Assembly (NCBI RefSeq): GCF_000091665.1
Contig: NC_000909.1
Location: 1,056,629 to 1,088,628, forward strand
Reading direction: 5' to 3'
Source: Methanocaldococcus jannaschii DSM 2661
GTDB lineage: Archaea > AGJL01 > Methanococci > Methanococcales > Methanocaldococcaceae
Length of the DNA: 32,000 bases
Shown here: one piece after another, positions 2,711 to 22,689 of the stretch
Position numbering within the stretch: the stretch's first letter is position 1
Layout: every line of letters begins with the position of its first letter
Notes under the pieces: generated by a model
What the model was told of the DNA's origin: nothing
Databases searched by the model: none
Seen by the model: only the letters and a program-made list of their open reading frames with translations
Made by a program: the position numbers and the translations under genes

Positions 2711-2791
2711 ATAGTTCTTTGCAAATGTGATTAAAAACTAACTAAGGAAAGTATGCCTTTCTTTATTACAAAATGTTTTACAAAGAGCTAC
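2711..2791. repeat. MJRE-like palindromic element (copy A), intergenic
   Basis: The ends atagttctttgcaaa (2711-2725) and tttacaaagagctac (2777-2791) pair at 12/15 as inverted repeats. Small central hairpin gaaag-tatgc-ctttc (2747-2761). The interior is similar to copy B (ttaaggaaa...tatgcctttYtttattacaaaat). Confidence 0.7.
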
Positions 2792-2816
2792 AAATAACTA
2801 TTTTTGGTGTGAAAAT

Positions 2817-3704
2817 ATGGAATTTACAAAGATGCATGCCCTTGGGAATGATTACATAGTTATTAATGAATTTGACGGGGAAAAAGTTAAAGAAGAAGAA
2901 AAAGCAGAGTTCTCAAGAAAAATTTGTAGAAGAGGTTTTTCAGTAGGTGCTGATGGAGTTATTTTCATCCAAAAGCCAACATCTGATGAATACGATGTAA
3001 GATTTAGAATATTTAACAGTGACGGCTCTGAGGCAGAGATGTGTGGTAATGGAATTAGATGTTTTTCAAAATACGTTTATGAGAGAATAATGAAAAAAAA
3101 TCCTTTAAAAGTAGAGACAAAAGGGGGCTTAAGAGTATCTGAAATGGAGATAGAAGGAGATGAAGTAAAGAAGATTAAAGTTTATATGGGAGTTCCAAAG
3201 TTTAAATTAAAAGATATACCAATGGTTGTTGATGGTTATAAAGAGGATGATGAATTTTTGAATGGAGAGTTAAAATTAAAGAATCCATATTTACCTAAGG
3301 TCAAGTTGAGTGTCGTTAATGTTGGAAATCCACATGCGGTTATATTTGTTGAAGATAACAACATAGATTTAGATTTTGTTAGAGAACACTTGGATGTTAT
3401 TGGGAAAGAGATAGAACACCATGAAGCATTCCCAGAGAGAATTAATGTGCATTTTGTAAAAGTTTTGAATCCTAATGAAATTAGGATTGTTACCTGGGAG
3501 AGGGGAGCTGGATACACAACTGCATGCGGAACAGGAACAACAGCTTCTGTAATTATGGCTCACAAACTTGGTAAAACAAATAATAGGGTTTTAGCTCACT
3601 TAGATGGTGGAGATTTGGAGATTGAGATTAAAGATGATGGAGTTTATATGATTGGAGATGCAGTAATGGTTTATGACGCCAAATTGATAAATATTGGCTG
3701 GTAA
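2817..3704 (+). CDS. dapF: Diaminopimelate epimerase
   Basis: FTKMHALGNDYIVI, plus the two catalytic-Cys motifs MCGNGIRCF and ACGTGTTAS. 295 aa. A ggtg SD lies upstream. Confidence 0.93.
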   Translation: MEFTKMHALGNDYIVINEFDGEKVKEEEKAEFSRKICRRGFSVGADGVIFIQKPTSDEYDVRFRIFNSDGSEAEMCGNGIRCFSKYVYERIMKKNPLKVETKGGLRVSEMEIEGDEVKKIKVYMGVPKFKLKDIPMVVDGYKEDDEFLNGELKLKNPYLPKVKLSVVNVGNPHAVIFVEDNNIDLDFVREHLDVIGKEIEHHEAFPERINVHFVKVLNPNEIRIVTWERGAGYTTACGTGTTASVIMAHKLGKTNNRVLAHLDGGDLEIEIKDDGVYMIGDAVMVYDAKLINIGW

Positions 3705-3707
3705 ATT

Positions 3708-4547
3708 ATGAAAGTAGATTTAACCATTGAATATAGAGGAAAATTAATTACTCCAAATCAAATAAAACTTTTAATTGCCTTACATAAAACAAAATCCCAA
3801 AATGAGGCAGCTAAGTTATTAAATATAAAGCCTTCCTCTTTTAATATTCAATTAAAAAGATTGGAGAATAAGTTAGGGGTTAAGCTTTATTACTCCTCAC
3901 CAAATGGGACGGTTTTAACTGATGCTGGCTTAGAGATTTTAGAAACTTACAACTCATATAGCAAAAGATTAAAAAATCACTTTTTTACAGTTTCTGGATT
4001 TGTGAGTGGGGAGATTGCCAAAATATTATTTGGAAATCCAATAATAACCTCTTTTGATAACGCTTTAAAATTGCTAAAGATGGGGTTTGTTGATGTCTTA
4101 GGGGTTGATGACAGCTATTGGATTTATAGGTTGGGAGATGAGAGATTTTTAAAGTCAGAGATTGGGAGTTGTGATTTTAACATATTTTTAATTGCCTACG
4201 ACAACTTTGTAATGGTTAGTAAAAAAGAGTTTAATTATAAAAACTTAGTTGGCATAAGATTTAGCTCACAGAGGATAGTTTATAACATTTTAAAGAAAGA
4301 AGGTATAAAATTTAAAGTTAAAGTAAGGGTAAAAAATCCGTTTAGAGCTATAGAGTTAGTTAATGAGGGCTATAGCTTATTTTTAAATGAGAGTTTATTG
4401 AGATATATAGATGGAGATTTTAATGTAATTTATCCTAACTTTTATGAAAAGACAGTTCATGCAATAAATTTTATTAGCTTTGGTAAAGATATTGAAATTG
4501 ATAAAAAAGAAATTAAAAAAATAAAAAAATTGGGTTTTAAAATTTGA
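3708..4547 (+). CDS. Putative transcriptional regulator with an N-terminal LysR/ModE-type HTH
   Basis: The N-terminus LTPNQIKLLIALHKTKSQNEAAKLLNIKPSSFNIQLKRLENKLGVKLY fits an HTH_1 pattern. I do not recognise the C-terminal domain. Confidence 0.6.
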   Translation: MKVDLTIEYRGKLITPNQIKLLIALHKTKSQNEAAKLLNIKPSSFNIQLKRLENKLGVKLYYSSPNGTVLTDAGLEILETYNSYSKRLKNHFFTVSGFVSGEIAKILFGNPIITSFDNALKLLKMGFVDVLGVDDSYWIYRLGDERFLKSEIGSCDFNIFLIAYDNFVMVSKKEFNYKNLVGIRFSSQRIVYNILKKEGIKFKVKVRVKNPFRAIELVNEGYSLFLNESLLRYIDGDFNVIYPNFYEKTVHAINFISFGKDIEIDKKEIKKIKKLGFKI

Positions 4548-4557
4548 ATTAAATTAT

Positions 4558-4616
4558 TTATAAAATCTTCACTCTTAAGCCGAACTTTTCAAACATTTTA
4601 AAATCATTATCGTAGG
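4558..4616 (-). pseudogene. Out-of-frame C-terminal remnant of the VapC PIN domain
   Basis: A different frame from the 4617..4901 ORF reads ..[22 protein letters not shown]. This is the conserved PIN C-terminus (T.D.DF) carrying the last acidic active-site residue. Confidence 0.6.
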
Positions 4617-4901
4617 TTAATAAAATATTGACGCAATTAATAAATCTTTTACTGATGGAATTTTGCCTTCTTTTTTTAGTTTTTTAAATATATTGCCAGC
4701 AATCTTTGATGATTTATCATCAAAATTTAGTTTTGGTAAGCTGTCAATCATTATCATTTCATTTTCTTTTAGATTACCACAATATAACTCAAAAACTGTT
4801 ATGGATGTTATTTTACAGTTGTAATCACAAATTTGATATAGAGTATCTTTATTTCCTCTAAATATCTCTATTATTACACTTGTATCAATGACTGCATCCA
4901 T
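4617..4901 (-). CDS. vapC: PIN-domain VapC toxin, C-terminally truncated (94 aa)
   Basis: [12 protein letters not shown] carries the first PIN acidic residue, and ...DLLIAS follows later. The ORF stops before the T.D.DF motif. Its start overlaps the upstream antitoxin gene by 28 nt. Confidence 0.7.
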
Positions 4902-5098
4902 TTTTCTGCCTCTTTAAGTTCTTTTTTTAATTTTTCTACATCCTCCTCACTTCTTGAACCAAAGGCAATCATAAAAACATCCAAGTTTTTTCTCTTTCTC
5001 TCTTCCAACAATTCTTTTATAAACTCTGAAACTGACTTTCTACCTTTAAGTTTTAATAATTCTTTATAAACATCATCATCTATAGTTATAGTTGCCAT
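4874..5098 (-). CDS. vapB: VapB-type antitoxin
   Basis: [31 protein letters not shown] is an N-terminus typical of archaeal VapB. The ATG at 5098 follows gaggtga; the track start at 5107 is GTG. It overlaps vapC. Confidence 0.7.
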
Positions 5099-5177
5099 AT
5101 TTATCACCTCAATGATAATATTTTATAATTTTGTAATATTATAAAAATGTTAGAATTTGTAATAAGGGGGAATAACC

Positions 5178-5795
5178 ATGAATGTTTTTGATAAATACGC
5201 TGAGGAATACGATAAATGGTTTGATGAAAATGAAATTATTTATAAATCAGAGATTGAAGCATTAAAAAGACATATTCCAAAAGGAAGAGGTTTAGAGATA
5301 GGAGTAGGAACCGGAAGATTTGCTAAACCTTTTAATATAAAAATTGGTGTTGATATATCGAAAGAAATGGCTAAAATAGCTGAAAAGAGAGGAATAAAAG
5401 TTATAATAGCAAAAGGTGAAGATTTGCCTTTCAAAGATGAAGAGTTTGATTTTTTTTTAATAAATACTGTCTTAGAGTTTGCAGAAAATCCAAAAAAGAT
5501 GATAGAAGAGGCAAAAAGGGTTTTAAAAAGAGGAGGAAAGATAATTATTGGAATTATTGATAGGGATAGCTTTTTAGGAAAGATGTATGAAGAAAAAAAG
5601 CAAAAAAGTAAATTCTACAAAGATGCAAATTTTTTATCAGCTAAGGAAGTTATAGAAATGCTAAAAGAATTAGGATTTAAAAATATAAAAGCCACACAAA
5701 CGATTTTTAAAGAAATTGATAAAGTTGATAAGGTTGAAGTTAAAGAAGGTTATGGAGAAGGTGGATTTGTAGCTATTTCTGCTGAAAAGATTTAA
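5178..5795 (+). CDS. Class I SAM-dependent methyltransferase
   Basis: Motif I is LEIGVGTGRF, with later motifs DFFLINTVLEF and LKRGGKIIIG. 205 aa. Confidence 0.8.
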   Translation: MNVFDKYAEEYDKWFDENEIIYKSEIEALKRHIPKGRGLEIGVGTGRFAKPFNIKIGVDISKEMAKIAEKRGIKVIIAKGEDLPFKDEEFDFFLINTVLEFAENPKKMIEEAKRVLKRGGKIIIGIIDRDSFLGKMYEEKKQKSKFYKDANFLSAKEVIEMLKELGFKNIKATQTIFKEIDKVDKVEVKEGYGEGGFVAISAEKI

Positions 5796-5809
5796 CTGGA
5801 GGTATAAGA

Positions 5810-8800
5810 ATGGATAAAATCTTAGAGATTTTAAAGGATTTTGGCATTGTAGAGCTAAGGCCACCACAGAAAAAGGCATTGGAAAGAGGATTATTGGATA
5901 AGAATAAAAATTTTTTAATATCTATTCCAACAGCATCTGGAAAAACACTAATTGGAGAGATGGCTTTAATAAATCACTTATTGGATGGGAATAAAAATCC
6001 TACAAACAAAAAGGGTATCTTCATAGTGCCTTTAAAGGCATTGGCATCAGAGAAGTATGAGGAGTTTAAAAGCAAATATGAGCGGTATGGGTTGAGAATA
6101 GCCTTATCAATAGGGGATTATGATGAAGATGAGGATTTAAGCAAATATCATTTAATTATAACGACAGCTGAGAAACTTGACTCTCTATGGAGACATAAAA
6201 TTGACTGGATTAATGATGTTTCTGTTGTTGTGGTTGATGAAATTCATCTAATTAATGATGAAACAAGAGGAGGGACGTTAGAGATTTTATTGACTAAATT
6301 AAAAGAGTTCAATGTACAAATTATTGGTTTATCTGCAACTATTGGAAATCCAGATGAGTTGGCTGAGTGGCTTAATGCTGAGCTTATAGTTGATGATTGG
6401 AGACCTGTTGAGTTGAAAAAAGGCATTTACAAAAATGAAGCCATAGAGTTTATAAATGGAGAAATTAGAGAGATAAAGGCAGTTGATAATAACGATATTT
6501 ACAACTTAGTTGTTGATTGTGTAAAGGAAGGAGGATGCTGTTTAGTATTCTGCAACACCAAAAGAAATGCCGTTAATGAGGCAAAGAAATTAAATTTAAA
6601 GAAATTTTTAACTGAAGAGGAAAAAATAAGATTAAAAGAAATAGCTGAAGAGATTTTATCTATCTTAGAGCCACCAACTGAGATGTGTAAAACCTTAGCT
6701 GAATGCATCTTAAACGGCTCTGCCTTTCATCATGCTGGTTTAACTTATCAGCATAGAAAGATTGTTGAAGATGCGTTTAGAAAGAGGTTAATTAAGGTTA
6801 TCTGTTGCACTCCTACACTCTGCCTAAATGCAAACACTGAAATACTGCAAGAGAGCGGATTTAGGAAAATTACTGAATTAAATAAAGACGAAAAAGTCTT
6901 TGCATTATGTGGAAAGGAGATAAAACCAGTAGATGGTTGGAAAGTCCATAAAACTCCACAGCATGAATACAACATCGTTGTAAAAACAGTAAATGGTTTA
7001 GAAATCACTACAACTCCAAATCATATATTTTTAGTTAAAGAAAATGGTTCTTTAAAAGAAAAAGAGGCAAAGGATTTAAAAGTTGGAGATTATGTAGCGA
7101 CAGTTGATAGAATAAGAGTTAAGGAGAAAGATATTGATTTATCTAATGGAGACCTTTATTTCATTGGATATTTCATAGGAGATGGTTATACCGGAGTTAT
7201 AGAAAAAAATACTCTTAAAGCCACTCCAGACCTTGCATTTAATCCAAAATATCCCCCAAATTTTGATGATTCTGAACTTCACAAAAAATACTTTTTGAAA
7301 TGTAGAATATCAAAAGGTGTTGCTCATTATATATACTCGAAAAAACTAAGAAAAATCTTTAATAAATTAAATATGCTCACAAAAGATAACAAAAACATTG
7401 ATGCATTTTGTAATCTTCCATTGGATAAGTTAGCATATCTTATTGCAGGATTGTTTGATAGTGATGGATATATATACTTAAATAGAAAAAACATTGAATT
7501 CTATTCAATATCTGAAAAATTGGTTGAACAATTACAGTTTGTATTGTTAAGATTTGGGATTCATAGCAGTATTAGAAAAAAGAAAACTAAAACTATGGTA
7601 TCTCCAACAAATGGCAAAGAATACAAATGTAAAGACATTTATGTATTAACAATTAGAGATTTTATGAGTATAAAAAGATTTTATGAGAACATCCCACTAA
7701 GACATGAAGAGAAGAGAAGAAAATTAGAAGAAATCATAAAAAATAAAGAAATTGGACAAATTCCTTCGGAATTTGTAGCTCTCCGCTTCACTCCGATTGC
7801 CAAAATATGGTGTGATTGTGGATTTAGTGTTGATTTGACCATGTTTAAACCAAGAACTAAAAGGCAGAGAGAGTTAAATAAAAAACGTGTAAAATTACTT
7901 TTTGAACTATTGGATGGAAAAAAATTAATTACAAACTATAAAGAATATTATTCAAAGAGAAAAAATCCTTATTTTGACTTTATTGTAAGAGAAAAAATTA
8001 ATGGAAACAATTATTACTCTTTAAATGAAAAAGGCAGAGTTTTAATGAGTCTCCTAAATAAACACATAAAAGATAAAGAAAACTTAGAAGAGATGTATAA
8101 CTTTTTAGTAAATCTCGAAAAATGTCCAATTTGTGGTAAGCCAATTCATAAAGAGATGAGATATAGCTGGAAAAAAGAATGCTATGATGGAGACATTTAT
8201 TGGGATAGAATTAAAGAAATTAAAAAGATAAAAGTAAATGACAAGTATGCCTATGACATAGAACTGCCAGACGATGGAAGCAACAGCCATTATATTGTGG
8301 CAAATGGATTTATAGTGCATAACTCTGCTGGGCTGAACTTACCGTGTAGAAGGGCAATAGTTAAAGACTTAACAAGATTTACAAATAAAGGGATGAGATA
8401 CATCCCAATAATGGAAATCCAACAATGTATAGGAAGAGCTGGAAGACCAGGATTAGACCCATATGGAGAAGGGATAATCGTAGCAAAGAATGATAGAGAT
8501 TATTTAAGGGCTTATCAGGCATTGACGCAAAAACCAGAGCCAATATATTCAAAGCTCTCAAATCAAGCAGTTTTAAGAACTCAACTTTTAGGACTTATTG
8601 CTACTGGAGAGATTAGAGATGAGTATGATTTAGAATGGTTTATAAGAAATACCTTCTATGCTCATCAATATGGAAATTTGAGGGAAGTTGCTAAAAATAT
8701 TAATGAAGTCATTAGATTTTTGGAAGAGAATGAGTTTATTATTGATTTTATGCCAACAGAATTAGGAAAGAGAGTTTCTGAACTCTACATAGACCCATTG

Positions 8801-9397
8801 TCAGCTAAATTCATCATAGATGGATTGGAAGAGATGGAGAATGAAGAAGAGATTTATTATCTCTACCTAATTTCAAAAACCTTGGAGATGATGCCAAATT
8901 TAAGAGTTTATAACTCTGAAGAGTTAAATTTAATTGATGAAATGGACTCTCTTGGAATAAAAAGCTTTGAGATTGAGGATTTAGAGGCATTTAAAACAGC
9001 TAAGATGCTGTATGATTGGATTAATGAAGTTCCAGAAGATGAAATTTTAAAGAGATATAAGATTGAACCAGGGATTTTGAGATATAAGGTTGAAAATGCT
9101 GTTTGGATAATGCATGCATTAAAAGAGATTGCTAAATTAATTGGTAAAAGCTCAGACATTCCAGAGAAGTTGGAGATAAGGTTAGAATATGGAGCTAAGG
9201 AAGATATTATTGAGTTGTTGAGCATAAAGTATATTGGAAGGGTTAGAGCAAGAAAGCTGTATAATGCTGGAATTAGAAGTATTGAGGATATTATAAACAA
9301 CCCTTCAAAAGTGGCTTCAATTATTGGAGAAAAAATAGCTAAAAAGATTTTGGATGAGTTGGGAGTTAAATTTGGACAGCAAAAACTAAGTTTTTAA
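5810..9397 (+). CDS. hel308: Hel308/Ski2-type DNA helicase precursor containing one intein
   Basis: Walker A PTASGKT, the DEIH box, SAT, and the helicase motif TPTL|SAGLNLP split by the intein. Winged-helix, ratchet and HhH domains are C-terminal. A ggagg SD is present. Confidence 0.93.
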   Translation: MDKILEILKDFGIVELRPPQKKALERGLLDKNKNFLISIPTASGKTLIGEMALINHLLDGNKNPTNKKGIFIVPLKALASEKYEEFKSKYERYGLRIALSIGDYDEDEDLSKYHLIITTAEKLDSLWRHKIDWINDVSVVVVDEIHLINDETRGGTLEILLTKLKEFNVQIIGLSATIGNPDELAEWLNAELIVDDWRPVELKKGIYKNEAIEFINGEIREIKAVDNNDIYNLVVDCVKEGGCCLVFCNTKRNAVNEAKKLNLKKFLTEEEKIRLKEIAEEILSILEPPTEMCKTLAECILNGSAFHHAGLTYQHRKIVEDAFRKRLIKVICCTPTLCLNANTEILQESGFRKITELNKDEKVFALCGKEIKPVDGWKVHKTPQHEYNIVVKTVNGLEITTTPNHIFLVKENGSLKEKEAKDLKVGDYVATVDRIRVKEKDIDLSNGDLYFIGYFIGDGYTGVIEKNTLKATPDLAFNPKYPPNFDDSELHKKYFLKCRISKGVAHYIYSKKLRKIFNKLNMLTKDNKNIDAFCNLPLDKLAYLIAGLFDSDGYIYLNRKNIEFYSISEKLVEQLQFVLLRFGIHSSIRKKKTKTMVSPTNGKEYKCKDIYVLTIRDFMSIKRFYENIPLRHEEKRRKLEEIIKNKEIGQIPSEFVALRFTPIAKIWCDCGFSVDLTMFKPRTKRQRELNKKRVKLLFELLDGKKLITNYKEYYSKRKNPYFDFIVREKINGNNYYSLNEKGRVLMSLLNKHIKDKENLEEMYNFLVNLEKCPICGKPIHKEMRYSWKKECYDGDIYWDRIKEIKKIKVNDKYAYDIELPDDGSNSHYIVANGFIVHNSAGLNLPCRRAIVKDLTRFTNKGMRYIPIMEIQQCIGRAGRPGLDPYGEGIIVAKNDRDYLRAYQALTQKPEPIYSKLSNQAVLRTQLLGLIATGEIRDEYDLEWFIRNTFYAHQYGNLREVAKNINEVIRFLEENEFIIDFMPTELGKRVSELYIDPLSAKFIIDGLEEMENEEEIYYLYLISKTLEMMPNLRVYNSEELNLIDEMDSLGIKSFEIEDLEAFKTAKMLYDWINEVPEDEILKRYKIEPGILRYKVENAVWIMHALKEIAKLIGKSSDIPEKLEIRLEYGAKEDIIELLSIKYIGRVRARKLYNAGIRSIEDIINNPSKVASIIGEKIAKKILDELGVKFGQQKLSF
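6821..8323 (+). mobile_element. Intein (501 aa) with a LAGLIDADG homing-endonuclease domain
   Basis: It starts at Cys (CLNANTEIL) straight after TPTL and ends ...FIVHN followed by Ser+1. LAGLIDADG blocks: LYFIGYFIGDGY and LAYLIAGLFDSDGYI. It is 1503 nt and in frame. Confidence 0.9.
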
Positions 9398-9410
9398 ATT
9401 TTTGAATTTA
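9391..9410 (+). terminator. Oligo-T tracts at and after the hel308 stop codon
   Basis: tttttaaatttttgaattt has two T5 runs at and just after the stop, which is the archaeal oligo-T termination signal type. Confidence 0.4.
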
Positions 9411-9947
9411 ACTTTTAAGTTGGATTCACCATTTATTGTCGCTAAGGAAGCTCCGAGCTTTATCTCGGAGAGAAGGTCAGAAATAAGGTATTTAGCGGTT
9501 TATCTAATAAAATAACCTCGGTTCTACAACTAAAGCTCTTGCTAAAGCTACTAGCCCATATTTTATTTTTCCAACATTTTCTGGATTTAAATCACTAACT
9601 ATGACATTTTCAGAACTAAAGGTATTAACAATCTCTTTAACGCTGGCTGAAATCCAATAATTCCAATCTTTTCTGGTTTTAATTCTTTAAATATTCAACT
9701 AACTTTTTTGCACATCTCATAACAGCATTTAAAGTGGCAATTATCTCAGCTCTATTTCCTTTATCTAACAGCTCTCTAATTGTTCCTTTAAATTCAACTG
9801 GCTTATCTGTGAAGGCATCCCACAACAACCCTTAAAATTAGTCCTCAACAAAATCTCTTTTCCACTCATTAAAGGATAGTCTTTAATTCTGGTTGTATCT
9901 AACTCTCTTAATATTTCTTTAACATCTATTGTATTTTTCACCATCAT
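9400..9947 (-). pseudogene. Decayed ABC-transporter ATPase gene (MalK/CysA-like), with multiple frameshifts and stops and a truncated 3' end
   Basis: Conceptual translation across at least 4 frame changes gives KGCCGMPS (Walker A remnant) and LKPEKIGIIGFQPAL (Q-loop). It also gives PENVGKIKYGLVALARALVVEPR then VILLDKPLNTL (signature/Walker B, with the catalytic Glu replaced by Lys). Only a 60-aa ORF (9765..9947) is intact. Confidence 0.6.
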
Positions 9948-10050
9948 AGTTGTTTTTGCAAAGTTATTAAAATTAATTAAGGAAATTTGAACATCCTAAA
10001 AGCATTCATTTATGCCTTTTTTTATTACAAAATTTTTTACAAGAAACTAT
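9946..10050. repeat. MJRE-like palindromic element (copy B), degenerate
   Basis: The ends atagttgtttttgcaaag (9946-9963) and ttttttacaagaaactat (10033-10050) form imperfect inverted repeats. The interior is similar to copy A. Confidence 0.6.
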
Positions 10051-10303
10051 GAGCTTATTAAAAATTTATTAATGAGATAAACTATTGTAACAATTGCAAT
10101 ATATATTGAATATTTTAGTCTTCAATAACTTCGAAACCATATTTCTTAAACGCTTGTTTATAAAGATGAGTCTTTTATAAATTGACTTAGACTCTATTTT
10201 CTTTTTTAATAAGGACAAGATTTATATATTGAATTTCCATAATATATTTTAACAATTTAAAATTTAAAAATTAAATGGGGGAGATAGAATTAAAAGAAGG
10301 GCA

Positions 10304-11512
10304 TTGTTAATTTTAAGAAAAGACAGTAAATTTGATAGAAAAAGTATAGAGGAGCTTAAAGAATTAGCTGAAGTTCTCTATAACCCAGTAAAAACAATAG
10401 TTCAAATTAGAAAAGCTGACCCAAAGTATCAAATTGGTAGTGGATTAGTTGAAAGAATCGCTGAAAATATTAAAGAGGAGAATATAGAGATTGTTATAGT
10501 TGGAAATATCTTAACTCCTTCACAAAAATACAACTTAGCTAAGAAATTTAAAGTTGAAGTTATTGATAAGATTGAGCTTGTTTTAAGGATATTCTATAAG
10601 CATGCAAGAACTAAAGAAGCTCAATTGCAGGTTAGATTGGCAGAATTGCAGTATGAGTTACCAAGGGCAAGGGAGAAAGTAAGATTAGCAAAGATGGGGG
10701 AACAGCCGGGATTTGGAGGATATGGGGATTATGAAGTTGAAAAATACTACCAAAAGGTAAAAAGGGAGATAGCAACAATAAAAAGAAAATTAGAAAAGCT
10801 CAGGGAGCATAGAAGGGTAGCAAGGAAAGGAAGGGCTAAATTTGATACTGTTGGTTTAATTGGTTATACAAACGCAGGAAAAACCAGCTTATTAAATGCA
10901 TTAACTGGAGAGAACAAAGAATCAAAAAATCAGGTTTTTACAACATTAACTACAACAACAAGGGCTATAAAAGGTATTAAGAGAAAGATATTGGTTACCG
11001 ATACAGTTGGATTTATTGATGATTTGCCCCCATTTATGATTGAGGCATTCTTATCAACAATTGAAGAGAGTGCAGACAGCGATTTGATATTAATTGTTGT
11101 AGATGCGTCCGATGATATTGAAGAAATTAAAAGAAAATTAAAGGTAAATCATGAAATTTTAAGTAAAATTAATTGCAAAGCCCCAATAATAACTGTATTT
11201 AACAAAGTAGATAAGATTACAAAGGAAAAAAAGAGAAAAATTTTAGAAGAGTTAGATAGATACATAGTGAATCCAATATTTGTCTCTGCAAAATACGACA
11301 TAAATATGGATTTACTTAAGGAGATGATTATAGAGCATCTCAATCTCTCCATCGGAACTATTGAGACAGACAATCCAAGGCTTATATCCTATTTGTATGA
11401 GAACACTGAGATTATTGAAGATATCTTAGAAGATAACAAGCATATAATAACATTCAGAGCAAAAGAAAGAGATGTAAATAGGATTTTAAAGCTGCATAAA
11501 TCTGCAGTATAA
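10304..11512 (+). CDS. hflX: GTPase HflX
   Basis: HflX N-terminal domain with the coiled-coil LQVRLAELQYELPR. G1 is GYTNAGKTSLLNAL, G3 is DTVGF and G4 is NKVD. There is no in-frame ATG; the track start is TTG. Confidence 0.88.
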   Translation: MLILRKDSKFDRKSIEELKELAEVLYNPVKTIVQIRKADPKYQIGSGLVERIAENIKEENIEIVIVGNILTPSQKYNLAKKFKVEVIDKIELVLRIFYKHARTKEAQLQVRLAELQYELPRAREKVRLAKMGEQPGFGGYGDYEVEKYYQKVKREIATIKRKLEKLREHRRVARKGRAKFDTVGLIGYTNAGKTSLLNALTGENKESKNQVFTTLTTTTRAIKGIKRKILVTDTVGFIDDLPPFMIEAFLSTIEESADSDLILIVVDASDDIEEIKRKLKVNHEILSKINCKAPIITVFNKVDKITKEKKRKILEELDRYIVNPIFVSAKYDINMDLLKEMIIEHLNLSIGTIETDNPRLISYLYENTEIIEDILEDNKHIITFRAKERDVNRILKLHKSAV

Positions 11513-11572
11513 ATTTAGTGAAATACGCTCAGAGGTATAATTAGAAAAATTTAAATTAAATCTGGTGAAAAT

Positions 11573-12415
11573 ATGGATGTTCTAAAAAGTCTGCCTGTTA
11601 CTGACAATCATATACATGTTGATGACAAACACGGCTATGGAGCTGAAAAGGTAGCTAAAACATTCTATAACGCTGGAGGAAAGGTAATGATAGTTTTAAA
11701 TAAACCAACATTTGATGGAAACCTAACAGCATCAATGGACATCTTAGTTAGAGATGTTGAGATAATAAACAAAAACACACCAGTTAAAGCTTTTGGATTA
11801 GTTGGAGTTCATCCAGCTGAGCTAACATACTTGATGAAATTTATGAGCTTGGAGGAGGCAAAACAAAGAATTGTTGATGCCTTAAATTATGCAAAAAAGC
11901 TTGTTGAGGAGTATGATTTTATTGTAGGAATTGGTGAAGTTGGAAGACCTCACTATCCTGTAAGTGAAGATGTTTGGAAAGCATCAAATGAGATTTTAAA
12001 ATATTGTATGGAATTGGCAAAAGATATTGGTTGTGCAATCCAAATTCATGCTGAGAGTTCAACAGAAGAGCAGTTTAAAGAGTTTTCTGAAATGGCTAAA
12101 GAGGTTGGATTGAATCCAGAAAAGGTCGTTAAGCATCATTGTGGGAATATGGTTTTGGAGGGAGAGAGATATGGTATTTTTCCTTCAATTTTAGCATCAA
12201 GAGTAAATGAAGACGTTGTTAAAAAATCTTTAAGGTTTGTTATGGAAACTGACTATATTGATGATTTAAAAAGGCCAGGAGTTGCCTTAGGAATAAAAAC
12301 AGTCCCAAGAGTTACAAGGAGATTGATTGAGAAGGGAGTTTTGGATGAAGAGGGTGTTTATAAAATCCATAAGGAGAATATAGAGAGGATTTATGATATG
12401 GATTTAGAATTGTAA
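11573..12415 (+). CDS. TatD-related metal-dependent TIM-barrel hydrolase
   Basis: N-terminal DNHIHVD metal-binding motif, internal GEVGRPHYP and IQIHAES. 280 aa. A ggtga SD is present. Confidence 0.6.
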   Translation: MDVLKSLPVTDNHIHVDDKHGYGAEKVAKTFYNAGGKVMIVLNKPTFDGNLTASMDILVRDVEIINKNTPVKAFGLVGVHPAELTYLMKFMSLEEAKQRIVDALNYAKKLVEEYDFIVGIGEVGRPHYPVSEDVWKASNEILKYCMELAKDIGCAIQIHAESSTEEQFKEFSEMAKEVGLNPEKVVKHHCGNMVLEGERYGIFPSILASRVNEDVVKKSLRFVMETDYIDDLKRPGVALGIKTVPRVTRRLIEKGVLDEEGVYKIHKENIERIYDMDLEL

Positions 12416-13333: not shown

Positions 13334-13344
13334 AAGAATCACTT

Positions 13345-15365: not shown

Positions 15366-15462
15366 ATTATCACTCAATTATACTATTATAATATTTAAAT
15401 TGCCAAAATAGTTAAATAGTTAATGTCAATATAATAAACTAAAAAAGTTTAAAAAAGTTTTT

Positions 15463-16395
15463 TTATTCAAATTCAATTGTAGCTGGTGGCTTATCAGTTA
15501 TATCAAACACTACTCTTGCAACATTTGGAATTTCTGATGTAATTCTTTTACTAATCCTCTTCAACAAATCAAAAGGAATCTCTGGAACGTGTGCTGTCAT
15601 AGCATCCAATGATTTAACCATTCTTAAGGCGACAATCCAGTTGTATTCCCTTTCATCTCCCTTAACTCCAGTTGCTTTACAGTCCAAAACAACGGCAAAG
15701 TATTGCCATAAATCTTTATCTAAGTTGGCTTTTTTAACTTCTTCCTCAACTATTGCATTTGCCTCTCTGCAGATGTTTAGCTTTTCTTCTGTAACCTCCC
15801 CTAAAACTCTAACAGCTAATCCTGGCCCTGGGAATGGTTGTCTATAGACGATGCTATCTGGTAGCCCTAATTCTTTTGCCAACAATCTAACTTCATCTTT
15901 ATAAAGCTCTCTCAATGGTTCAACAACCTCTAAAACCATTCCGTGAGGTAGGGCAACGTTATGATGGCTCTTTATCTTCCCTTGTGTTTCAATCCAATCT
16001 GGGGCTATAGTCCCTTGCACTAAAACCTCTGCCTTTATATCTTCAGCAATCTCCTCAAAGACATCAATAAATAACTTTCCAATAATCTTTCTCTTCTCCT
16101 CTGGGTCTGTAACTCCTTTTAGGGCATTTAAAAATCTATCCTTTGCATCTACAACAATTAAGTTTAATCCCAACTTGTCTCTAAAAGTTTTTTCAACTTC
16201 TTCCCTCTCTCCCTTTCTCATCAATCCAGTATCAACAAAAACAGCTGTTAATTTATCTCCAATTGCTTTGTGGGTTAAGACGGCAGCGACGGAGCTATCT
16301 ACCCCTCCACTTAAGGCAATTATTGCTTTTCTGTCACTAATTTGCTGTTTTATTTCTTCTACTGCCTCATCAATAAATTTTTTTGGGTCAAACAT
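15463..16395 (-). CDS. guaAB: GMP synthase subunit B (ATP pyrophosphatase subunit)
   Basis: PP-loop LSGGVDSSV, a conserved C-terminal dimerisation domain, and the ending KPPATIEFE. 310 aa. Confidence 0.92.
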
Positions 16396-16413
16396 AAAAA
16401 TATCACCTTTAAA

Positions 16414-16770
16414 TTATTCTTCCTTTTCAGCACTTTCACCGTTATTTTCATTTTCTTCTAATATAATAATGTTTTTCTTACAACTGTTTAAATGTTTAAA
16501 AGCGTTTTCTTCAAGTTTTTTGGCTAAGTTTTTGGGGACATTATCCATATTATTGGCTAAGTAACTGGCAACACAAGCAGATAACAGTAATATCGCTGCT
16601 TTTTGTTCGCTTTTAAGTCGATGAATGTGATGGGGCCTAATGTCTAACATCTCATAAATTTTAAATAATTTTTTACATTCATTGTCAGTATTTTCTAAAT
16701 TATCATCCATAATTTCTTTTACAACATAAACAAAAAATTGATGAAGTTTCATTAACTGCTCTTTGTGCAT
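16414..16770 (-). CDS. Small helical hypothetical protein (possibly UPF0058 family)
   Basis: 118 aa, ATG start, sits just upstream of guaAB with 18 nt between them, acidic tail. The family assignment is from memory only. Confidence 0.5.
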   Translation of the reverse strand: MHKEQLMKLHQFFVYVVKEIMDDNLENTDNECKKLFKIYEMLDIRPHHIHRLKSEQKAAILLLSACVASYLANNMDNVPKNLAKKLEENAFKHLNSCKKNIIILEENENNGESAEKEE

Positions 16771-16831
16771 GTTATCACTTTAAATATTAAGCAAAGAATA
16801 AGATTAATATTAAAATTGGCTAAGAAATATA

Positions 16832-16941
16832 TATAGTTTTTTGCAAAACATTTTAGGATAAAAAGGTATTTATGAACGCCTTCCTTTTGGAAGGCGTTTA
16901 AACTTTCCTTAATAAATTTTATTACTTTGCAAAAAACTATA
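16832..16941. repeat. MJRE-like palindromic element (copy C), in a divergent intergenic region
   Basis: Inverted repeats tatagttttttgcaaaa (16832-16848) and ctttgcaaaaaactata (16925-16941) pair at 16/17. Perfect 10-bp central hairpin aacgccttcc-tttt-ggaaggcgtt (16875-16898). Confidence 0.85.
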
Positions 16942-16958
16942 AAAACTTTGGTGGTATC

Positions 16959-18224
16959 ATGAGAGAAATCATTAATAAACTTAATCCCATTATAATAGAC
17001 AAAGCCGATAAAAAGTTTGGAGTTTCAAGAATATTAAAAAAATATGATGGAAAACCAGTTTATATAAAAGATGTAAATGGATTTGAAGTTGTTGGAAATC
17101 TTTGCAGTAGGGAAACCCTTTCAAAGATTTTTAATGTTAAAAAGGAGGATTTTATATTCTTTATGCTTGATGCAATGGAAAAGGAAAAAGAAGGAAAATT
17201 AAAGATAAACAATAAATTGAAAGAGAAATATATTGTTGAAATCCCAGAGAATATTAAAAACTGGCCAATTCCAATATACTACGAGAAGGATGCGGGAGCT
17301 TATATAACAAGTGGGGTTGTTGTTGTCTATGATAAAGATTACGGCTATAACTTATCAATTCATAGAATTTTGGTTAAAGATGATTATTTAGTTATAAGAA
17401 TGGTTGAACAAAGGCATTTACACTTTTTATATAATAAAGCTCTAAAGGAAAAGGGATATTTGGATGTTGCTATAGTTATAGGAGTTCATCCAGCTGTTTT
17501 GTTGGCTGGCTCTACCTCTGCTGATATAACATTTGATGAGCTAAAATTTGCAGCTGCTTTGTTGGGAGGAGAGATAGGGGTTTTTGAGTTGGATAATGGC
17601 TTGTTAGTTCCAGAGGCAGAGTTTATCATTGAGGGTAAGATATTGCCAGAGGTTGATGATGAGGGGCCTTTTGTAGATATAACTGGAACTTATGATATTG
17701 TTAGAAAGCAGCCAATAATTAAGATTGAGAAACTTTATAGGAAGGAAAAACCTATATTCCACGCTTTATTACCGGGAGGGATTGAACATAAAACATTGAT
17801 GGGAATGCCTCAAGAGCCAAGAATTTTGAAGGGAGTTAGAAATACCGTTCCGACAGTAAAAAATATTGTTTTAACTGAGGGAGGTTGTTGCTGGCTTCAT
17901 GCTGTTGTTCAGATAGAGAAGAGGACAGAAGGAGATGGGAAAAATGCTATATTGGCAGCATTTGCTTCCCATCCAAGTTTGAAGCATGTGATTGTAGTTG
18001 ATGATGACATAAATATATTTGATATAAATGATGTTGAGTATGCAATAGCCACAAGGGTTCAAGGAGATAAAGATATAGTTATTATTTCTGGAGCCAAAGG
18101 TTCTTCTTTAGATCCTTCGAGTGATTTAAAAAATAAACTAACAGCAAAAGTGGGGGTAGATGCAACTATGAGTTTGATTAAAGGTAGAGAGCATTTTGAG
18201 AGAGCCAAGATTCCTGATAAATGA
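16959..18224 (+). CDS. UbiD-family (prenyl-FMN dependent) decarboxylase
   Basis: 421 aa with UbiD-like blocks throughout: YITSGVVV, NLSIHRI, VDITGTYD and GGCCWLHAVVQI. A ggtgg SD is present. Confidence 0.85.
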   Translation: MREIINKLNPIIIDKADKKFGVSRILKKYDGKPVYIKDVNGFEVVGNLCSRETLSKIFNVKKEDFIFFMLDAMEKEKEGKLKINNKLKEKYIVEIPENIKNWPIPIYYEKDAGAYITSGVVVVYDKDYGYNLSIHRILVKDDYLVIRMVEQRHLHFLYNKALKEKGYLDVAIVIGVHPAVLLAGSTSADITFDELKFAAALLGGEIGVFELDNGLLVPEAEFIIEGKILPEVDDEGPFVDITGTYDIVRKQPIIKIEKLYRKEKPIFHALLPGGIEHKTLMGMPQEPRILKGVRNTVPTVKNIVLTEGGCCWLHAVVQIEKRTEGDGKNAILAAFASHPSLKHVIVVDDDINIFDINDVEYAIATRVQGDKDIVIISGAKGSSLDPSSDLKNKLTAKVGVDATMSLIKGREHFERAKIPDK

Positions 18225-18246
18225 GTTGAAGGTAAAAAGGAATGAT

Positions 18247-18927
18247 TTAAAAAGATTTAAGTTTAATTATCAACTCTCCAAACAATTTTTCTTGAATCAA
18301 CTCTGCCTTTCCATCATTAGCTAAGTATAAAGAAGGGATAAAGTATCTAACCCTATCCTCTCTTGTTTTAAACTTTTCCTGATAAACTATAATTCCCTCT
18401 TTCATCAAATCATCTAACAACTCAGCTATTATATCGGAGATATCATCCTCTTCTATAAGCTCCTCTATAATTTCTTCAACCTCATTTGTCTTTTTCTCTC
18501 TATTCTTTCTGGATTTTTTAACCTTATTTAGCTCTTTTTCAATTGTTTTAATTAATTCATCAACAGTAACTGGTTTTTTACTTTTTTTATTTTTATCTTT
18601 ATCTTCTTTTTCTTTCTTTTTGCCTTTTTTAGGTTTCTCTTCTATATCATCATAATCATAATAATCATCGCAATAATCATAATCCTCTTCTTCCTCAACC
18701 TTACATTCGTCATATAAAGCTTCAGATTTCATTCTCAACAATATACCAGCAACAAGAATAACATCGGCAGATAATCGAATATCAAACTTCTTAAGCTCTT
18801 TAATCTTTTGTATATAGTAATCGGCAATTTCAGCAATATTAACATCCCAAGGATTTAGATTTTTCTTTTCAATCCCTTCTTTAATCATCCTAACCCAAAG
18901 AACAATGTCAAAGTTAGAATCAATCAT
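18247..18927 (-). CDS. ScpA/kleisin-like segregation and condensation protein with an acidic/basic low-complexity linker
   Basis: The N-terminus LNPWDVNIAEIADYYIQKIKELKKFDIRLSADVILVAGILLRMKSEALY matches the ScpA pattern. The central linker is EEEEDYDYCDDYYDYDDIEEKPKKGKKKEKEDKDKNKKSKK. Confidence 0.6.
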   Translation of the reverse strand: MIDSNFDIVLWVRMIKEGIEKKNLNPWDVNIAEIADYYIQKIKELKKFDIRLSADVILVAGILLRMKSEALYDECKVEEEEDYDYCDDYYDYDDIEEKPKKGKKKEKEDKDKNKKSKKPVTVDELIKTIEKELNKVKKSRKNREKKTNEVEEIIEELIEEDDISDIIAELLDDLMKEGIIVYQEKFKTREDRVRYFIPSLYLANDGKAELIQEKLFGELIIKLKSF

Positions 18928-18945
18928 TGCAATCCCCTAAATAAA

Positions 18946-19404
18946 CTATTTCTTTATCTTTTCAACAACCCTAATCCCAAAAATCTCAGCAGTTTTGTAC
19001 TGCCCATCCTCATCCTTTTCAGCAGATTTAACCATATCCCAAATTGTTAATAAAGCTATAGAGACACCAGTTAAAGCTTCCATCTCAATTCCTGTCTTAT
19101 AAGTAGTTTTTACTGAGCAGATTGCCTTTATCTTATCTTCAAATACCTCAAAATCAACATTAACTGAAGTTATTGGTAGAGGATGGCACATTGGAATTAG
19201 CTCATAAGTTTTTTTAACTGCCAAGATTCCAGCTATTTGTGCAGTTGTTAAGACATTTCCCTTTTTAATTTTTTGTTCTTTTATTAATTTAATTGTTTCT
19301 GGTTTTAATTTTATGTATCCTTCAGCAACACATATTCTCTCAACATCTTCTTTTTTAGAAATATCAACCATCTTAACGCCTTTATCATCAACATGAGTTA
19401 GCAT
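18946..19404 (-). CDS. moaC: Cyclic pyranopterin monophosphate synthase accessory protein MoaC
   Basis: [27 protein letters not shown] and TGIEMEALT are conserved MoaC blocks. 152 aa. Confidence 0.92.
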
Positions 19405-19475
19405 TTAATCACCACTACTTTATTAAACCAAATACTACAATTATACAATAACATTATAATCATTGCCGAATAAAC

Positions 19476-19575
19476 TATATAGAACTTTCGCAGGAATAAA
19501 ATGTTTTATTGAATATTGATGCCTAAAGGCATCCAAATACCTTTTTAAAAATATAAGTTGCGAAAGTTCTATATA
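19476..19575. repeat. MJRE-like palindromic element (copy D), upstream of elp3
   Basis: Perfect 17-bp inverted repeats: tatatagaactttcgca (19476-19492) and tgcgaaagttctatata (19559-19575). Central hairpin gatgcc-taaa-ggcatc (19518-19533). Confidence 0.88.
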
Positions 19576-19633
19576 TAAATCATTTTTATAAATATATTCA
19601 TATATGTAAGTTTAAAGTTTATTGGTGATTATC

Positions 19634-21247
19634 ATGGATGAAAAGGCAAAATTAATGAGATGCATCATTGAAAGAATCTTAGATGAATACAACAAAGGAA
19701 AAACCTTGGATAAAAAGAGAATTGAACAGATTAAGGCAGAGTGTTTAAGAATACATAGAATTGGTATTGGGCATCCATCAAACTCTGAGATTTTGCAGTA
19801 TGCAACTGAAGAGGAAAAGAAGATATTAATCCCAATATTAAGAAAGAAGCCTGTCAGGACAATCTCTGGTGTTGCTGTTGTAGCAGTGATGACATCTCCA
19901 GAAAAATGCCCTCATGGAAAATGTATCTTCTGCCCCGGAGGAGTTGGAAGTGTATTTGGAGATGTGCCACAAAGCTACACTGGAAGAGAGCCAGCCACTA
20001 TGAGAGGTTTGATGTTCAACTTCGACCCATATTTACAAACAAAGGCAAGGATTGAGCAGTTGGAAAAGGTAGGGCATCCAACAAATAAAATTGAATTAAT
20101 TATAATGGGAGGAACATTTCCAGCAAGAGATATAGAATATCAAGATTGGTTTATTAAGAGATGCTTAGATGCCATGAATGGCGTTGATGCAAGTAGCTTA
20201 GAGGAAGCCCAAAAGATAAATGAAACTGCAGAACATAGATGCGTAGCTCTCTGTATAGAAACAAGGCCAGATTATTGTGGAGAAAAGGAAATAAATCAGA
20301 TGCTAAAGTTGGGAGCTACAAGGGTAGAGTTGGGAGTTCAAACAATATATAATGAGATTTTAGAATTCTGTAAGAGAGGGCATACAGTTGAAGACACTAT
20401 AAAAGCCACCCAACTATTAAAGGATAGTGGTTTAAAGGTTTCTTATCATCTAATGCCTGGAATGCCTGGCTCAGATATGGAGATGGATAAAAAAATGTTT
20501 AAAGAAATCTTTGAAAACCCAGATTTCAAGCCGGATATGGTTAAAATCTATCCATGTTTGGTTATTGAAGGAACTGAACTCTATGAAATGTGGAAGAGAG
20601 GAGAGTATAAACCATACAGAGAGGAAGAGGCAATAGAGATAATTAGCTATGCAAAATCAATAATGCCAAAATGGGTTAGAACTTCAAGGATTCAGAGGGA
20701 CATTCCAGCTACTGTGATAGTTGATGGAGTTAAGAAGAGTAATTTGGGAGAGTTGGTTTATAAATACATGGAAAAGCATGGAATTAAATGTAAGTGTATA
20801 AGATGCAGAGAAGTTGGACATGTCATGTATAAAAAAGGAATAATGCCGGATATTGAGCATATAAAACTATGCAGAGAAGAATATGAGGCAAGTGGAGGAA
20901 CTGAGATATTCCTATCCTATGAAGATGTGAAAAACGATATCTTGATAGCATTTTTAAGATTGAGAGAGCCTTATAAACCATTTAGAAAAGAGATTGACGA
21001 TAACACAATGTTAGTTAGGCAACTCCATGTCTGTGGGCAAGAAAAACCATTAACTAAGGATTTGAAAGAAATAACTTGGCAACATAAAGGTTATGGAAGA
21101 AAACTTTTAGAAGAGGCAGAGAGAATAGCCAAAGAAGAATTTGGAAAGAAAAAGATTTTGGTGACAAGTGGTATTGGAGTTAGAGAATATTATAGAAAGT
21201 TAGGATATGAAAGAGTTGGGGCCTATATGGGTAAATACTTAGAATAG
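19634..21247 (+). CDS. elp3: Elp3-type radical SAM / GNAT tRNA uridine(34) modification enzyme
   Basis: The ATG at 19634 follows ggtga; the track start is TTG. It has the Elp3 Cys motif CPHGKCIFCPGG, a radical-SAM barrel, and a C-terminal GNAT domain (HKGYGRKLLEEAERIA). Confidence 0.92.
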   Translation: MDEKAKLMRCIIERILDEYNKGKTLDKKRIEQIKAECLRIHRIGIGHPSNSEILQYATEEEKKILIPILRKKPVRTISGVAVVAVMTSPEKCPHGKCIFCPGGVGSVFGDVPQSYTGREPATMRGLMFNFDPYLQTKARIEQLEKVGHPTNKIELIIMGGTFPARDIEYQDWFIKRCLDAMNGVDASSLEEAQKINETAEHRCVALCIETRPDYCGEKEINQMLKLGATRVELGVQTIYNEILEFCKRGHTVEDTIKATQLLKDSGLKVSYHLMPGMPGSDMEMDKKMFKEIFENPDFKPDMVKIYPCLVIEGTELYEMWKRGEYKPYREEEAIEIISYAKSIMPKWVRTSRIQRDIPATVIVDGVKKSNLGELVYKYMEKHGIKCKCIRCREVGHVMYKKGIMPDIEHIKLCREEYEASGGTEIFLSYEDVKNDILIAFLRLREPYKPFRKEIDDNTMLVRQLHVCGQEKPLTKDLKEITWQHKGYGRKLLEEAERIAKEEFGKKKILVTSGIGVREYYRKLGYERVGAYMGKYLE

Positions 21248-21338
21248 GACTTTCGCAGTTTATATGTTAAACTTTGGAACTTAGACACCTTTAGGGTGTC
21301 ATTATGCAATAAATAATTATTCCTGCGAAAGTCCTATT
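21243..21338. repeat. MJRE-like palindromic element (copy E), overlapping the elp3 stop codon
   Basis: Perfect 16-bp inverted repeats: aataggactttcgcag (21243-21258) and ctgcgaaagtcctatt (21323-21338). Central hairpin gacacc-tttag-ggtgtc (21284-21300). Its reverse complement aligns with copy D. Confidence 0.88.
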
Positions 21339-21385
21339 AGAATAATCAATCATCAAATCTTGTAATAATGAATAAGGTATTTATA

Positions 21386-21402
21386 AAAAGCCTTTGGCTT
21401 TT
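21386..21402. terminator. Short hairpin flanked by T/A runs between convergent genes
   Basis: aaaagcc-ttt-ggctttt is a 7-bp stem. It reads as hairpin plus T-run on both strands and overlaps the stop codon of the minus-strand membrane-protein gene. Confidence 0.3.
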
Positions 21403-21976
21403 ATATAAAGTTCATTAGAGAACAGATATTTATTTGATGATTGATTATAAATGCCACAATAAAAGGAAGATAGAGATTGTCATCTATTCTTATTTTCTTA
21501 CTTACAAATTCAATAAATGCTGAGATTAAAGCTACGAAAATCCCATAAGTTCCATAAAATGGATATAAAATTAATGAGGCAGAGATAAAAAATGCTAAAA
21601 ATCCCTCAACCGTTTTTCCAAAGTATTTTATTTTTAATTTTCCTCTAATGCCTATTATAGTAGCTAAAGAATCCCCAACAGCAAATACCAAGATGCCAAA
21701 AAATACAGCTTTTATATCATCAATTAAAATTAATGAGATTAACATACCAATAGCAAAGTATATCGCTCCTTTTCCATCCTCTTTTTCTCTTTTACAGAGA
21801 TTTAATAAATCTGATACTATTGGTATGTAATATCTTTTACATAAAAAATATAGGCAGATACCAATAACTATACTAACAATTAATGGAATTATTAATTGTT
21901 TTTTAAATATTAAAACTGAAAATGCTATTAAAACTCCAAAAACTAAATGGATTGTTTGTCTATAAATCTCTCTCAA
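21401..21976 (-). CDS. Integral membrane protein, polyprenol (dolichol) kinase / CTP-transferase-like
   Basis: About 6 predicted TM helices. The motif VGDSLATIIGIRGK...GKTVEGFLAFF resembles the CdsA/dolichol-kinase family. TTG start, with no early in-frame ATG. Confidence 0.5.
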   Translation of the reverse strand: MREIYRQTIHLVFGVLIAFSVLIFKKQLIIPLIVSIVIGICLYFLCKRYYIPIVSDLLNLCKREKEDGKGAIYFAIGMLISLILIDDIKAVFFGILVFAVGDSLATIIGIRGKLKIKYFGKTVEGFLAFFISASLILYPFYGTYGIFVALISAFIEFVSKKIRIDDNLYLPFIVAFIINHQINICSLMNFI

Positions 21977-22062
21977 AGTTTCAACCTTTTTAGTTTATAT
22001 TTAATATTGTTGTGAAAAGATATTAATATGTTTTATAACAAAAATGAATATTTGGTGATATT

Positions 22063-22587
22063 ATGAAGAGTGTCAAAAAACTCCTCCTATTAGCTTTTGC
22101 CGTATGTTTGGCAGTGGGTTTTTCTGGATGTTTGGAGCAGCCAAAGATTGAAGTAGTTGGGCAGAAAATTCAAAAAGTAGATGCAGATAACACAAAGATA
22201 GAAATTCAAGTGTTGGTTGATAATCCAAATCCTATTGGTATTAGCATAGATAAAATTTCATTTGATATTTATGCTTTAGTTGGTGGAGATAAGATATATT
22301 TAGGACACGGAGAGCAGAGTAACATTAAAATAACCTCTGGAAATACTACTTTCACTTTGCCAGTAACAATATCTAATAAAAAACTTGTTGAAGTAGCTTT
22401 AAAAGAAAAAAGCACAAAAATCCCTATTGAGATTAAGGGAGATATAGCAGTTAATTTATTCATAACAAAAGTAAATATTCCAATAGATATTCAGCAAGAG
22501 ATAGATGTTTCTGCAATAGCAAAAGAAGAGGTGTTAAATCAATTAAATAATTTAAATCCTAACCAAATACAATCAATAGCACAGTAA
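22063..22587 (+). CDS. Lipoprotein with a LEA_2 / WHy (LEA14-like) domain
   Basis: Signal peptide with a lipobox-like GFSGC. The pattern IEIQVLVDNPNPIGISIDKISFDIYA..GDKIYLGHG is characteristic of LEA type-2 beta-sandwich domains. A ggtga SD is present. Confidence 0.6.
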   Translation: MKSVKKLLLLAFAVCLAVGFSGCLEQPKIEVVGQKIQKVDADNTKIEIQVLVDNPNPIGISIDKISFDIYALVGGDKIYLGHGEQSNIKITSGNTTFTLPVTISNKKLVEVALKEKSTKIPIEIKGDIAVNLFITKVNIPIDIQQEIDVSAIAKEEVLNQLNNLNPNQIQSIAQ

Positions 22588-22590
22588 TTT

Positions 22591-22689
22591 TATAACTTTT
22601 TGCAGATATTTAGATATATAATGCACTGATGAACGCCTTTAGGGCGTTCAAATATCATTTTTAATTTTTAATAATCGTAAAAAACTATA
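22591..22689. repeat. MJRE-like palindromic element (copy F), between convergent genes
   Basis: Central hairpin tgaacgcc-tttag-ggcgttca (22630-22650) closely resembles that of copy C. The ends tataactttttgcag and cgtaaaaaactata are weaker inverted repeats (about 10/15). Confidence 0.7.

Follow-up and report, generated by a model that had tools for sequence, protein, structure and literature searches.

The genome of Methanocaldococcus jannaschii reportedly harbors 141 copies of palindromic repeats in three groups, MJRE1-3, and three MJRE2 copies are said to lie inside genes. Here we analyze a 32,000-nt stretch of this genome (the window) and describe eight short repeat elements, A–G and J, which are very probably non-autonomous, mobile palindromic elements of Methanocaldococcus, similar to miniature inverted-repeat transposable elements (MITEs) and identical in class with these published repeats. 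Two papers that cite the original description give its title, on M. jannaschii palindromic repetitive elements with coding potential (Suyama, Lathe and Bork, FEBS Lett 2005; 579:5281), and also note fusions of the elements with protein genes. The MJRE share with the window elements the genome, the size class, the palindromic structure, a mostly extragenic position and a few in-frame copies in genes. Specifically, the window holds M. jannaschii palindromes of ~100 nt that are mainly extragenic, and one copy, G, lies in frame in a gene without disrupting it. The window elements differ from MJRE in nothing of kind, the assignment being made by description. The repeat class was already known for this genome and our finding is a rediscovery; what it adds is modest, namely direct evidence of recent mobility within the genus, and pairs of filled and empty sites that define the ends and the target duplications. 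To our knowledge, none of the relatives' genomes that provided the empty sites was available in 2005.

Comparable elements have been described in other hosts. Rickettsia palindromic elements (RPE), with which one citing paper draws a parallel, are likewise palindromic, ~100–150 nt long and in frame in housekeeping genes that they do not destroy; the M. jannaschii class parallels them as a set of small selfish palindromes able to sit in archaeal housekeeping genes. RPE belong to an unrelated host and are notable chiefly for coding insertions, whereas here the copies are mostly intergenic. Correia/NEMIS elements of Neisseria and Stowaway-type MITEs are ~100–150 nt long with long terminal repeats and are found near promoters or gene ends (PMC2229807); compared by such general properties, they have the duplication of TA in common with type 1, one of the two main types in the window. 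The ISPlag1-type MITEs of cyanobacteria have terminal 13–14 nt close to those of the other main type, type 2, and the same unit length, and many contain an internal hairpin, but they differ in their 5-bp duplication (4–7 here), in their unrelated interiors and in the domain of life. Sulfolobus MITEs (Redder et al. 2001, as cited in PMC2229807) are also archaeal and non-autonomous and, according to the citing paper, are thought to be mobilized in trans by the transposases of insertion sequences (ISs); they have parent ISs with matching ends, whereas the window elements have no identified parent.

The repeat family in the window

We searched the whole window for inverted repeats with exact arms and 40–110 nt between the arms, and compared the result with 200 dinucleotide-preserving shuffles. 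Five pairs have perfect arms of 16–17 nt (G, 242–339; C, 16832–16941; D, 19476–19575; E, 21243–21338; J, 21342–21448), the arms of C, D, E and G being 64–78 nt apart, while the shuffles gave a mean of 0.74 pairs with arms of at least 12 nt and a longest arm of 15 nt. Fold energies, scored as z against shuffles, are exceptionally low for the same five elements (G −9.1, C −8.4, E −8.0, D −7.5, J −6.8), less so for the weaker palindromes F (−3.7) and A (−2.9), and unremarkable for B (+0.15). In addition, we built two covariance models, R1 from type 1, including two M. fervens copies, and R2 from type 2. Each model picks up the members of its own type (E = 1e-8 to 1e-20), and cross-detection is weak: with R1, D, G and E reach E values of 9e-4 to 3e-2, and with R2, C and F reach ~1e-2 to 1e-1. 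The eight elements cover 764 nt in total, or 2.4% of the window, and are as follows.

G, 245–336, no strand assigned: type 2; 92-nt unit CAGACC...GGTCTG, perfect inverted repeat extending to 242–339, 16-nt arms.
A, 2712–2790, plus strand: type 1; decayed and centrally shortened (R1 66.6 bits, E = 8e-9), in the spacer between a PRC-barrel gene and dapF.
B, 9947–10049, plus strand: type 1; old, palindrome lost (R1 91.7 bits), adjoining a DUF364 pseudogene.
C, 16834–16939, plus strand: type 1; ends TAGTTTTTTGCAAA...TTTGCAAAAAACTA, 16-nt perfect arms, in the spacer between a UPF0058 gene and a UbiD-family gene.
D, 19480–19571, no strand assigned: type 2; ends TAGAACTTTCGCA...TGCGAAAGTTCTA, 17-nt perfect arms, between the divergent moaC and elp3.
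E, 21245–21336, no strand assigned: type 2; ends TAGGACTTTCGCAG...CTGCGAAAGTCCTA, 16-nt perfect arms, starting with the elp3 stop codon TAG.
J, 21343–21447, no strand assigned: third end type; ends ATAATCAATCATCAAAT, TAATCAATCATCAAAT..., 17-nt perfect arms, same architecture.
F, 22593–22687, plus strand: type 1; left end mutated (TAAC for TAGT), TA on either side (R1 79.1 bits, E = 5e-11), between the convergent LEA_2 and RNase P p30 genes.

The units are 79–106 nt long, have terminal inverted repeats and contain no open reading frame (ORF) of their own, as in MITEs, and the arms of C, D, E, G and J are perfect over 16–17 nt. There are at least three end types with one architecture, in which terminal inverted repeats of ~13–17 nt enclose AT-rich arms and a central GC-rich hairpin. 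Type-1 ends read TAG...CTA, and all three type-2 copies in the window are 92 nt long. J, a strong palindrome absent from the list of copies in the first-pass annotation of this DNA, starts 7 nt past the last base of E, beyond a second copy of the TTAGAA that flanks E, and shares a 21-nt internal block with one type-1 copy despite their different ends.

The first-pass annotation had proposed eight copies of one palindromic element. Seven of these, A–G, are members of one repeat superfamily. The eighth, supposedly a degenerate copy at 28522–28615, is rejected: both models are silent, it resembles none of the copies and it folds no better than shuffles (z −0.33), and chance is its best account. 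The palindromic architecture attributed to the copies is found with perfect terminal repeats in C, D, E and G and in a weaker form in A and F, while B is a member by sequence and yet non-palindromic. The proposed division into D/E/G and A/B/C/F is real, the two subtypes sharing a common architecture and separating cleanly. The GC-rich central hairpins are present, the copy at 242–339 is not only intragenic, as had been stated, but in frame, and about six of the nine gene-free spacers longer than 100 nt hold a copy, in agreement with the remark that most of the longer spacers are occupied. The window is free of transposase genes, also as noted before. The first-pass annotation did not recognize that these repeats belong to a class published for this genome.

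In favor of chance similarity in AT-rich intergenic DNA, short AT-rich end motifs taken alone show no enrichment. The end motif TAGTTTTTTGCAAA, with up to three mismatches, has 20 matches against 19.7 expected, and the AT-rich type-1 pattern gave 84 unrelated viral matches. The whole elements do not behave in this way. Their inverted repeats lie far above the dinucleotide shuffles, the covariance models recover the copies at the E values given above, and comparison with other genomes shows the elements as discrete insertions, as described below. These three observations refute a chance origin for the seven copies, which we regard as vanishingly improbable.

Insertions and empty sites in Methanocaldococcus

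Syntenic loci were found through homologues of Elp3, AsnB and the UbiD-family protein in five relatives, namely a 97% relative (L130), FS406-22 (L228 and L231), M. fervens (L230), M. bathoardescens (L232) and an ENA contig (L229). The asnB gene and the UbiD-family gene were better synteny anchors than elp3, around which synteny is broken in M. indicus and in contig L129.

The comparison reveals precise presence/absence polymorphism between the window and its relatives, as is typical of MITEs. At C, the empty site of M. bathoardescens and FS406-22 reads GAAATATATAAAAG, that is GAAATATA-TA-AAAG, and the filled site here reads GAAATATA-TA-(TAG...CTA)-TA-AAAAC; the insertion therefore comprises 106 nt plus a duplicated TA (2 nt). 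A second filled/empty comparison, for the type-1 copy that separates the UbiD-family gene from scpA in M. bathoardescens, shows the TA duplication again. Together with the TA flanks of six of eight type-1 copies, these two comparisons show that type 1 inserts at TA and duplicates it.

At D, the site is empty in L130 and M. bathoardescens (AAAC-TATAT-AAATC), and the insertion measures 96 nt. E and J are both missing from M. bathoardescens, where AATAC-TTAGAA-TAAATGCC contains a single TTAGAA, while the filled site here reads TTAGAA-(E, 92 nt)-TTAGAA-(J, 105 nt)-TAAATGCC, with perfect 6-bp TTAGAA flanks of E, the cleanest type-2 case, at 21239–21244 and 21337–21342. A is missing from FS406-22, M. 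fervens and L229, and the spacer between the PRC-barrel gene and dapF is 114 nt here versus 24–49 nt there. G is a 99-nt in-frame insertion flanked by TTTCTAA and TTACTAA; L229 shares its residues, which FS406-22, strain 28A, M. fervens and M. indicus lack. E and G have the target ACTTAGAA in common. These site comparisons show A, C, D, E, G and J to be lineage-specific insertions, acquired after the split from M. bathoardescens, FS406-22 and M. fervens. B is older, since its position in M. bathoardescens, immediately behind the start of DUF364, is occupied by a decayed type-1 copy (L232:3597-3707).

The relatives have copies of their own at sites that are empty in the window. In M. fervens, a type-1 copy separates the promoter block of hflX from its start codon, and in M. 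bathoardescens type-1 copies occupy the spacer from kae1 to guaA and that from the UbiD-family gene to scpA (L232:8416-8521, 11277-11380). The purC–purS spacer of FS406-22 holds a type-2 copy (L231:16330-16430), and both types also occur in metagenomic relatives (L233, L236). An additional 9.7 kb of M. jannaschii flank contains only one decayed type-2 copy. The MITE-type reading of the first-pass annotation is supported by the size, the terminal repeats, the absence of an own ORF, the several copies and subfamilies, the precise empty sites and the copies of relatives elsewhere. In a separate FS406-22 spacer (L228:21037-21235, equivalent to L231:21145-21247), an apparent decayed type-2 copy is broken by a second palindrome with TAACAG...CTGTTA ends, which may be a nested insertion.

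The insertions affect genes in several ways. G lies inside the asparagine synthase gene (48–1682, minus strand) and adds 33 in-frame residues after ...YKMSEL, with conserved flanking sequence; the equivalent position in Escherichia coli AsnB (1CT9) is a 5-residue connection, versus ~35 residues here. The first three bases of E (TAG) take the place of the TAA stop codon of elp3 in M. bathoardescens and leave the protein unchanged. J encodes the last 12 residues of ORF 21401–21976, a membrane protein, in place of an 18-residue tail in M. bathoardescens. These cases and the M. fervens hflX copy illustrate how the elements reshape gene ends, by donating a stop codon, replacing a C-terminus, adding 33 residues to AsnB and inserting between promoter and start codon. 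Coding sequence and the ends of genes tolerate the insertions. As a separate observation, the asnB segment after the G insert is 95% identical in L229, versus 86% before the insert (L229:5401-5498 compared with window 242–339).

The first-pass annotation had offered, besides MITEs, structured-RNA modules. On this account the elements would be small RNAs, terminators or mRNA stabilizers under selection for the hairpin, and their repetition would reflect function and not mobility. The very strong folding is in its favor, as are changes on both sides with pairing retained in 13 of 34 type-1 pairs and 14 of 27 type-2 pairs, a type-2 terminal stem without a broken cell, and a compensatory C:G to T:A difference between the orthologous G and L229 copies. 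Such co-variation is, however, also expected if the copies descend from different palindromic masters. Furthermore, no Rfam family matches the window at gathering score, the orientation to the flanking genes is inconsistent, the old copies A and B have lost complementarity, one copy is in frame within a protein, and most copies are missing at orthologous sites although the neighboring proteins are 85–94% identical. No evidence supports a dedicated RNA function, and we consider this account quite improbable.

Candidate parents and the mode of mobilization

Our favored explanation remains that of non-autonomous mobile elements. A transposase encoded elsewhere, or since lost, would move them in trans. 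For type 1, the TA signature would correspond to that of IS630/Tc1-mariner-type elements; no transposase or parent of this type was found in the examined loci, no dedicated genome search having been made. For type 2, the ends would be those of an element like the IS701 group. Insertion into TA-rich promoter sequence would rebuild a TATA-like box at the junction (CTATAAAA), which may explain why intergenic copies are tolerated. The filled and empty site pairs can be used to seek the missing transposase and to test the rebuilding of the TATA box at the junctions.

Several observations weigh against this explanation. No autonomous element with the same ends was found in ~217 kb of Methanocaldococcus sequence, and the sole transposase family seen in the examined loci, IS6-type and similar to ISMja1, has unrelated ends. 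The duplication length of type 2 is inconstant, the insertions of D, E and G measuring 92 nt plus 4, 6 and 7 nt (96, 98 and 99 nt), and TA-rich termini blur the insertion boundaries; no single duplication length fits D, E and G together. Speculatively, a 6-bp duplication in all three could be reconciled with these values by slippage in TA runs and a frame-restoring gain of 1 nt in G. In addition, the distribution of G is patchy, as L229 has G though it is more distant over the neighboring genes than FS406-22, which lacks it, and the pattern therefore requires recombination, precise loss or repeated insertion. Finally, the terminal repeats co-vary perfectly between copies, which simple neutral decay of MITEs does not predict.

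The last point bears on a variant explanation in which inserted copies, even one in a coding gene, have their arm complementarity actively maintained, either through hairpin-templated repair or because a DNA or RNA hairpin is under selection, and in which type 2 separately shares a common ancestry with cyanobacterial IS701-group MITEs. All differences in the type-2 terminal stem among five copies are matched on the opposite arm, and the paired C:G to T:A change between G and its L229 orthologue points the same way. Against this, A and B, both old, show decay, and the change in question is located at a CpG. We judge this variant unlikely; if it were true, the shared type-2 ancestry would represent one transposon lineage spread across domains.

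As a candidate parent, we considered the resident IS6-family element ISMja1. The type-1 copy of M. bathoardescens at L232:3597-3707 abuts a DDE_Tnp_IS240 gene fragment, and there is a resemblance between the end AGTTCTTTGCAAA of type 1 and GGTTCTGTTGCAAA, the bacterial IS6/IS26 consensus. However, the M. bathoardescens IS retains its right end and lacks only the first ~200 nt, so the adjacency reflects insertion or truncation. Complete 703-bp ISMja1-like copies from metagenomes end in GAGACTGTCAAGTTAA and TTAACTTGACAGTCTC, unlike both element types, and the listed ISMja1 has the same length, 703 bp, and 'GA' ends, in agreement with them. Moreover, the elements duplicate 2 bp and 4–7 bp, as opposed to ~8 bp for the IS6 family. 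Since the GAGACTGTCAAGTTAA ends of the ISMja1-like copies differ from the TAGTTTTTTGCAAA and TAGGACTTTCGCA ends of the elements, ISMja1 is not the parent; the end sequences refute this derivation and leave it very improbable. A search of a plasmid collection with the IS fragment yielded only haloarchaeal IS6-like genes and no Methanocaldococcus plasmid.

ISMja1-like ISs do lie directly beside palindromes in two loci. In one, the 5′-truncated IS abuts the type-1 copy (L232:3597-4200); in the other, a type-2 copy lies 6–8 nt from an IS end (L236:658-790).

Type 2 could instead be composed of deletion derivatives of an IS701-group IS of the ISPlag1 kind, and be kin to a MITE family abundant in cyanobacteria, Poribacteria and Chloroflexi. 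The type-2 end pattern matched at least 120 stretches of 86–94 nt in species-representative genomes, nearly all cyanobacterial among the matches listed. The cyanobacterial end CAGGACTTACGCA is identical to the terminal repeat published for ISPlag1, an element of the IS701 group whose closest named relative is from a methanogen (PMC2464740). The terminal 14 nt of E match some cyanobacterial copies at 13 of 14 positions, and type-2 ends match the published ISPlag1 end at 10–11 of 13 positions, in a search that was itself seeded with type-2 ends.

Other features argue against this origin. All listed bacterial matches have A where D, E and the FS406-22 copy have T, and the search pattern is therefore a hybrid of variants. 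The cyanobacterial duplication is 5 bp (exact in 75 of 106), in contrast to the three unequal archaeal values, and the similarity is confined to the ends. None of the Methanocaldococcus loci examined showed an IS701-type transposase, and by a rough estimate a 13-nt likeness to one of many thousands of repeat families could arise by chance at the per-cent level. A descent of type 2 from such an IS is conceivable but on balance doubtful, and we treat the resemblance only as a lead.

The cyanobacterial, Poribacteria and Chloroflexi loci themselves (L007-L126) contain an abundant family of MITEs ~90 nt in length, which end in (C/T)AGGACTTACGCA, vary in their interiors and duplicate 5 bp of the target. 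No full-length element was found in the cyanobacterial loci, where end pairs 0.7–2.6 kb apart enclose only ordinary genes. Palindrome-associated elements derived from IS200/IS605 are excluded by the long terminal inverted repeats and the flanking duplications. A viral match to the type-2 pattern is an unrelated region of repeated TTACTTTCGCA boxes in marine phages; the marine viral contigs concerned (L131-L143) have in common a 90-nt region with four repeated TTACTTTCGCA-type boxes, which looks like an operator array.

Neighboring genes

The window has a G+C content of ~31% and encodes proteins of a Methanococcales kind, including a Kae1-Bud32 fusion, Hel308 with an intein, Elp3, a Methanococcales-type RNase P component 3, ComB and CobY. 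Over 537 residues, the Kae1-Bud32 protein shows 100% identity to the chains of PDB 3EN9 and 2VWB, which we take to be M. jannaschii MJ1130, and the same locus is present in sequencing-run assemblies. The sequence itself thus points to M. jannaschii or a strain nearly identical with it.

The gene content around the elements also varies among the relatives. Hel308 (5810–9397) comprises 1195 aa with intein and LAGLIDADG domains, versus intein-free orthologues of 694–696 aa in FS406-22, M. fervens and M. bathoardescens. The DUF364 gene, a fragmented remnant here (9552–9971, minus strand, by tblastn), is intact in M. fervens and M. bathoardescens. Two small genes, one of them for a VapB-type antitoxin, lie between the LysR-type and methyltransferase genes (4617–5098, minus strand); in FS406-22 and M. 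fervens, these flanking genes overlap and the small-gene pair is absent. The mechanosensitive-channel gene (25891–26976) is missing from the syntenic locus of M. bathoardescens, which has a 498-aa gene where F sits in the window (22588–22701).

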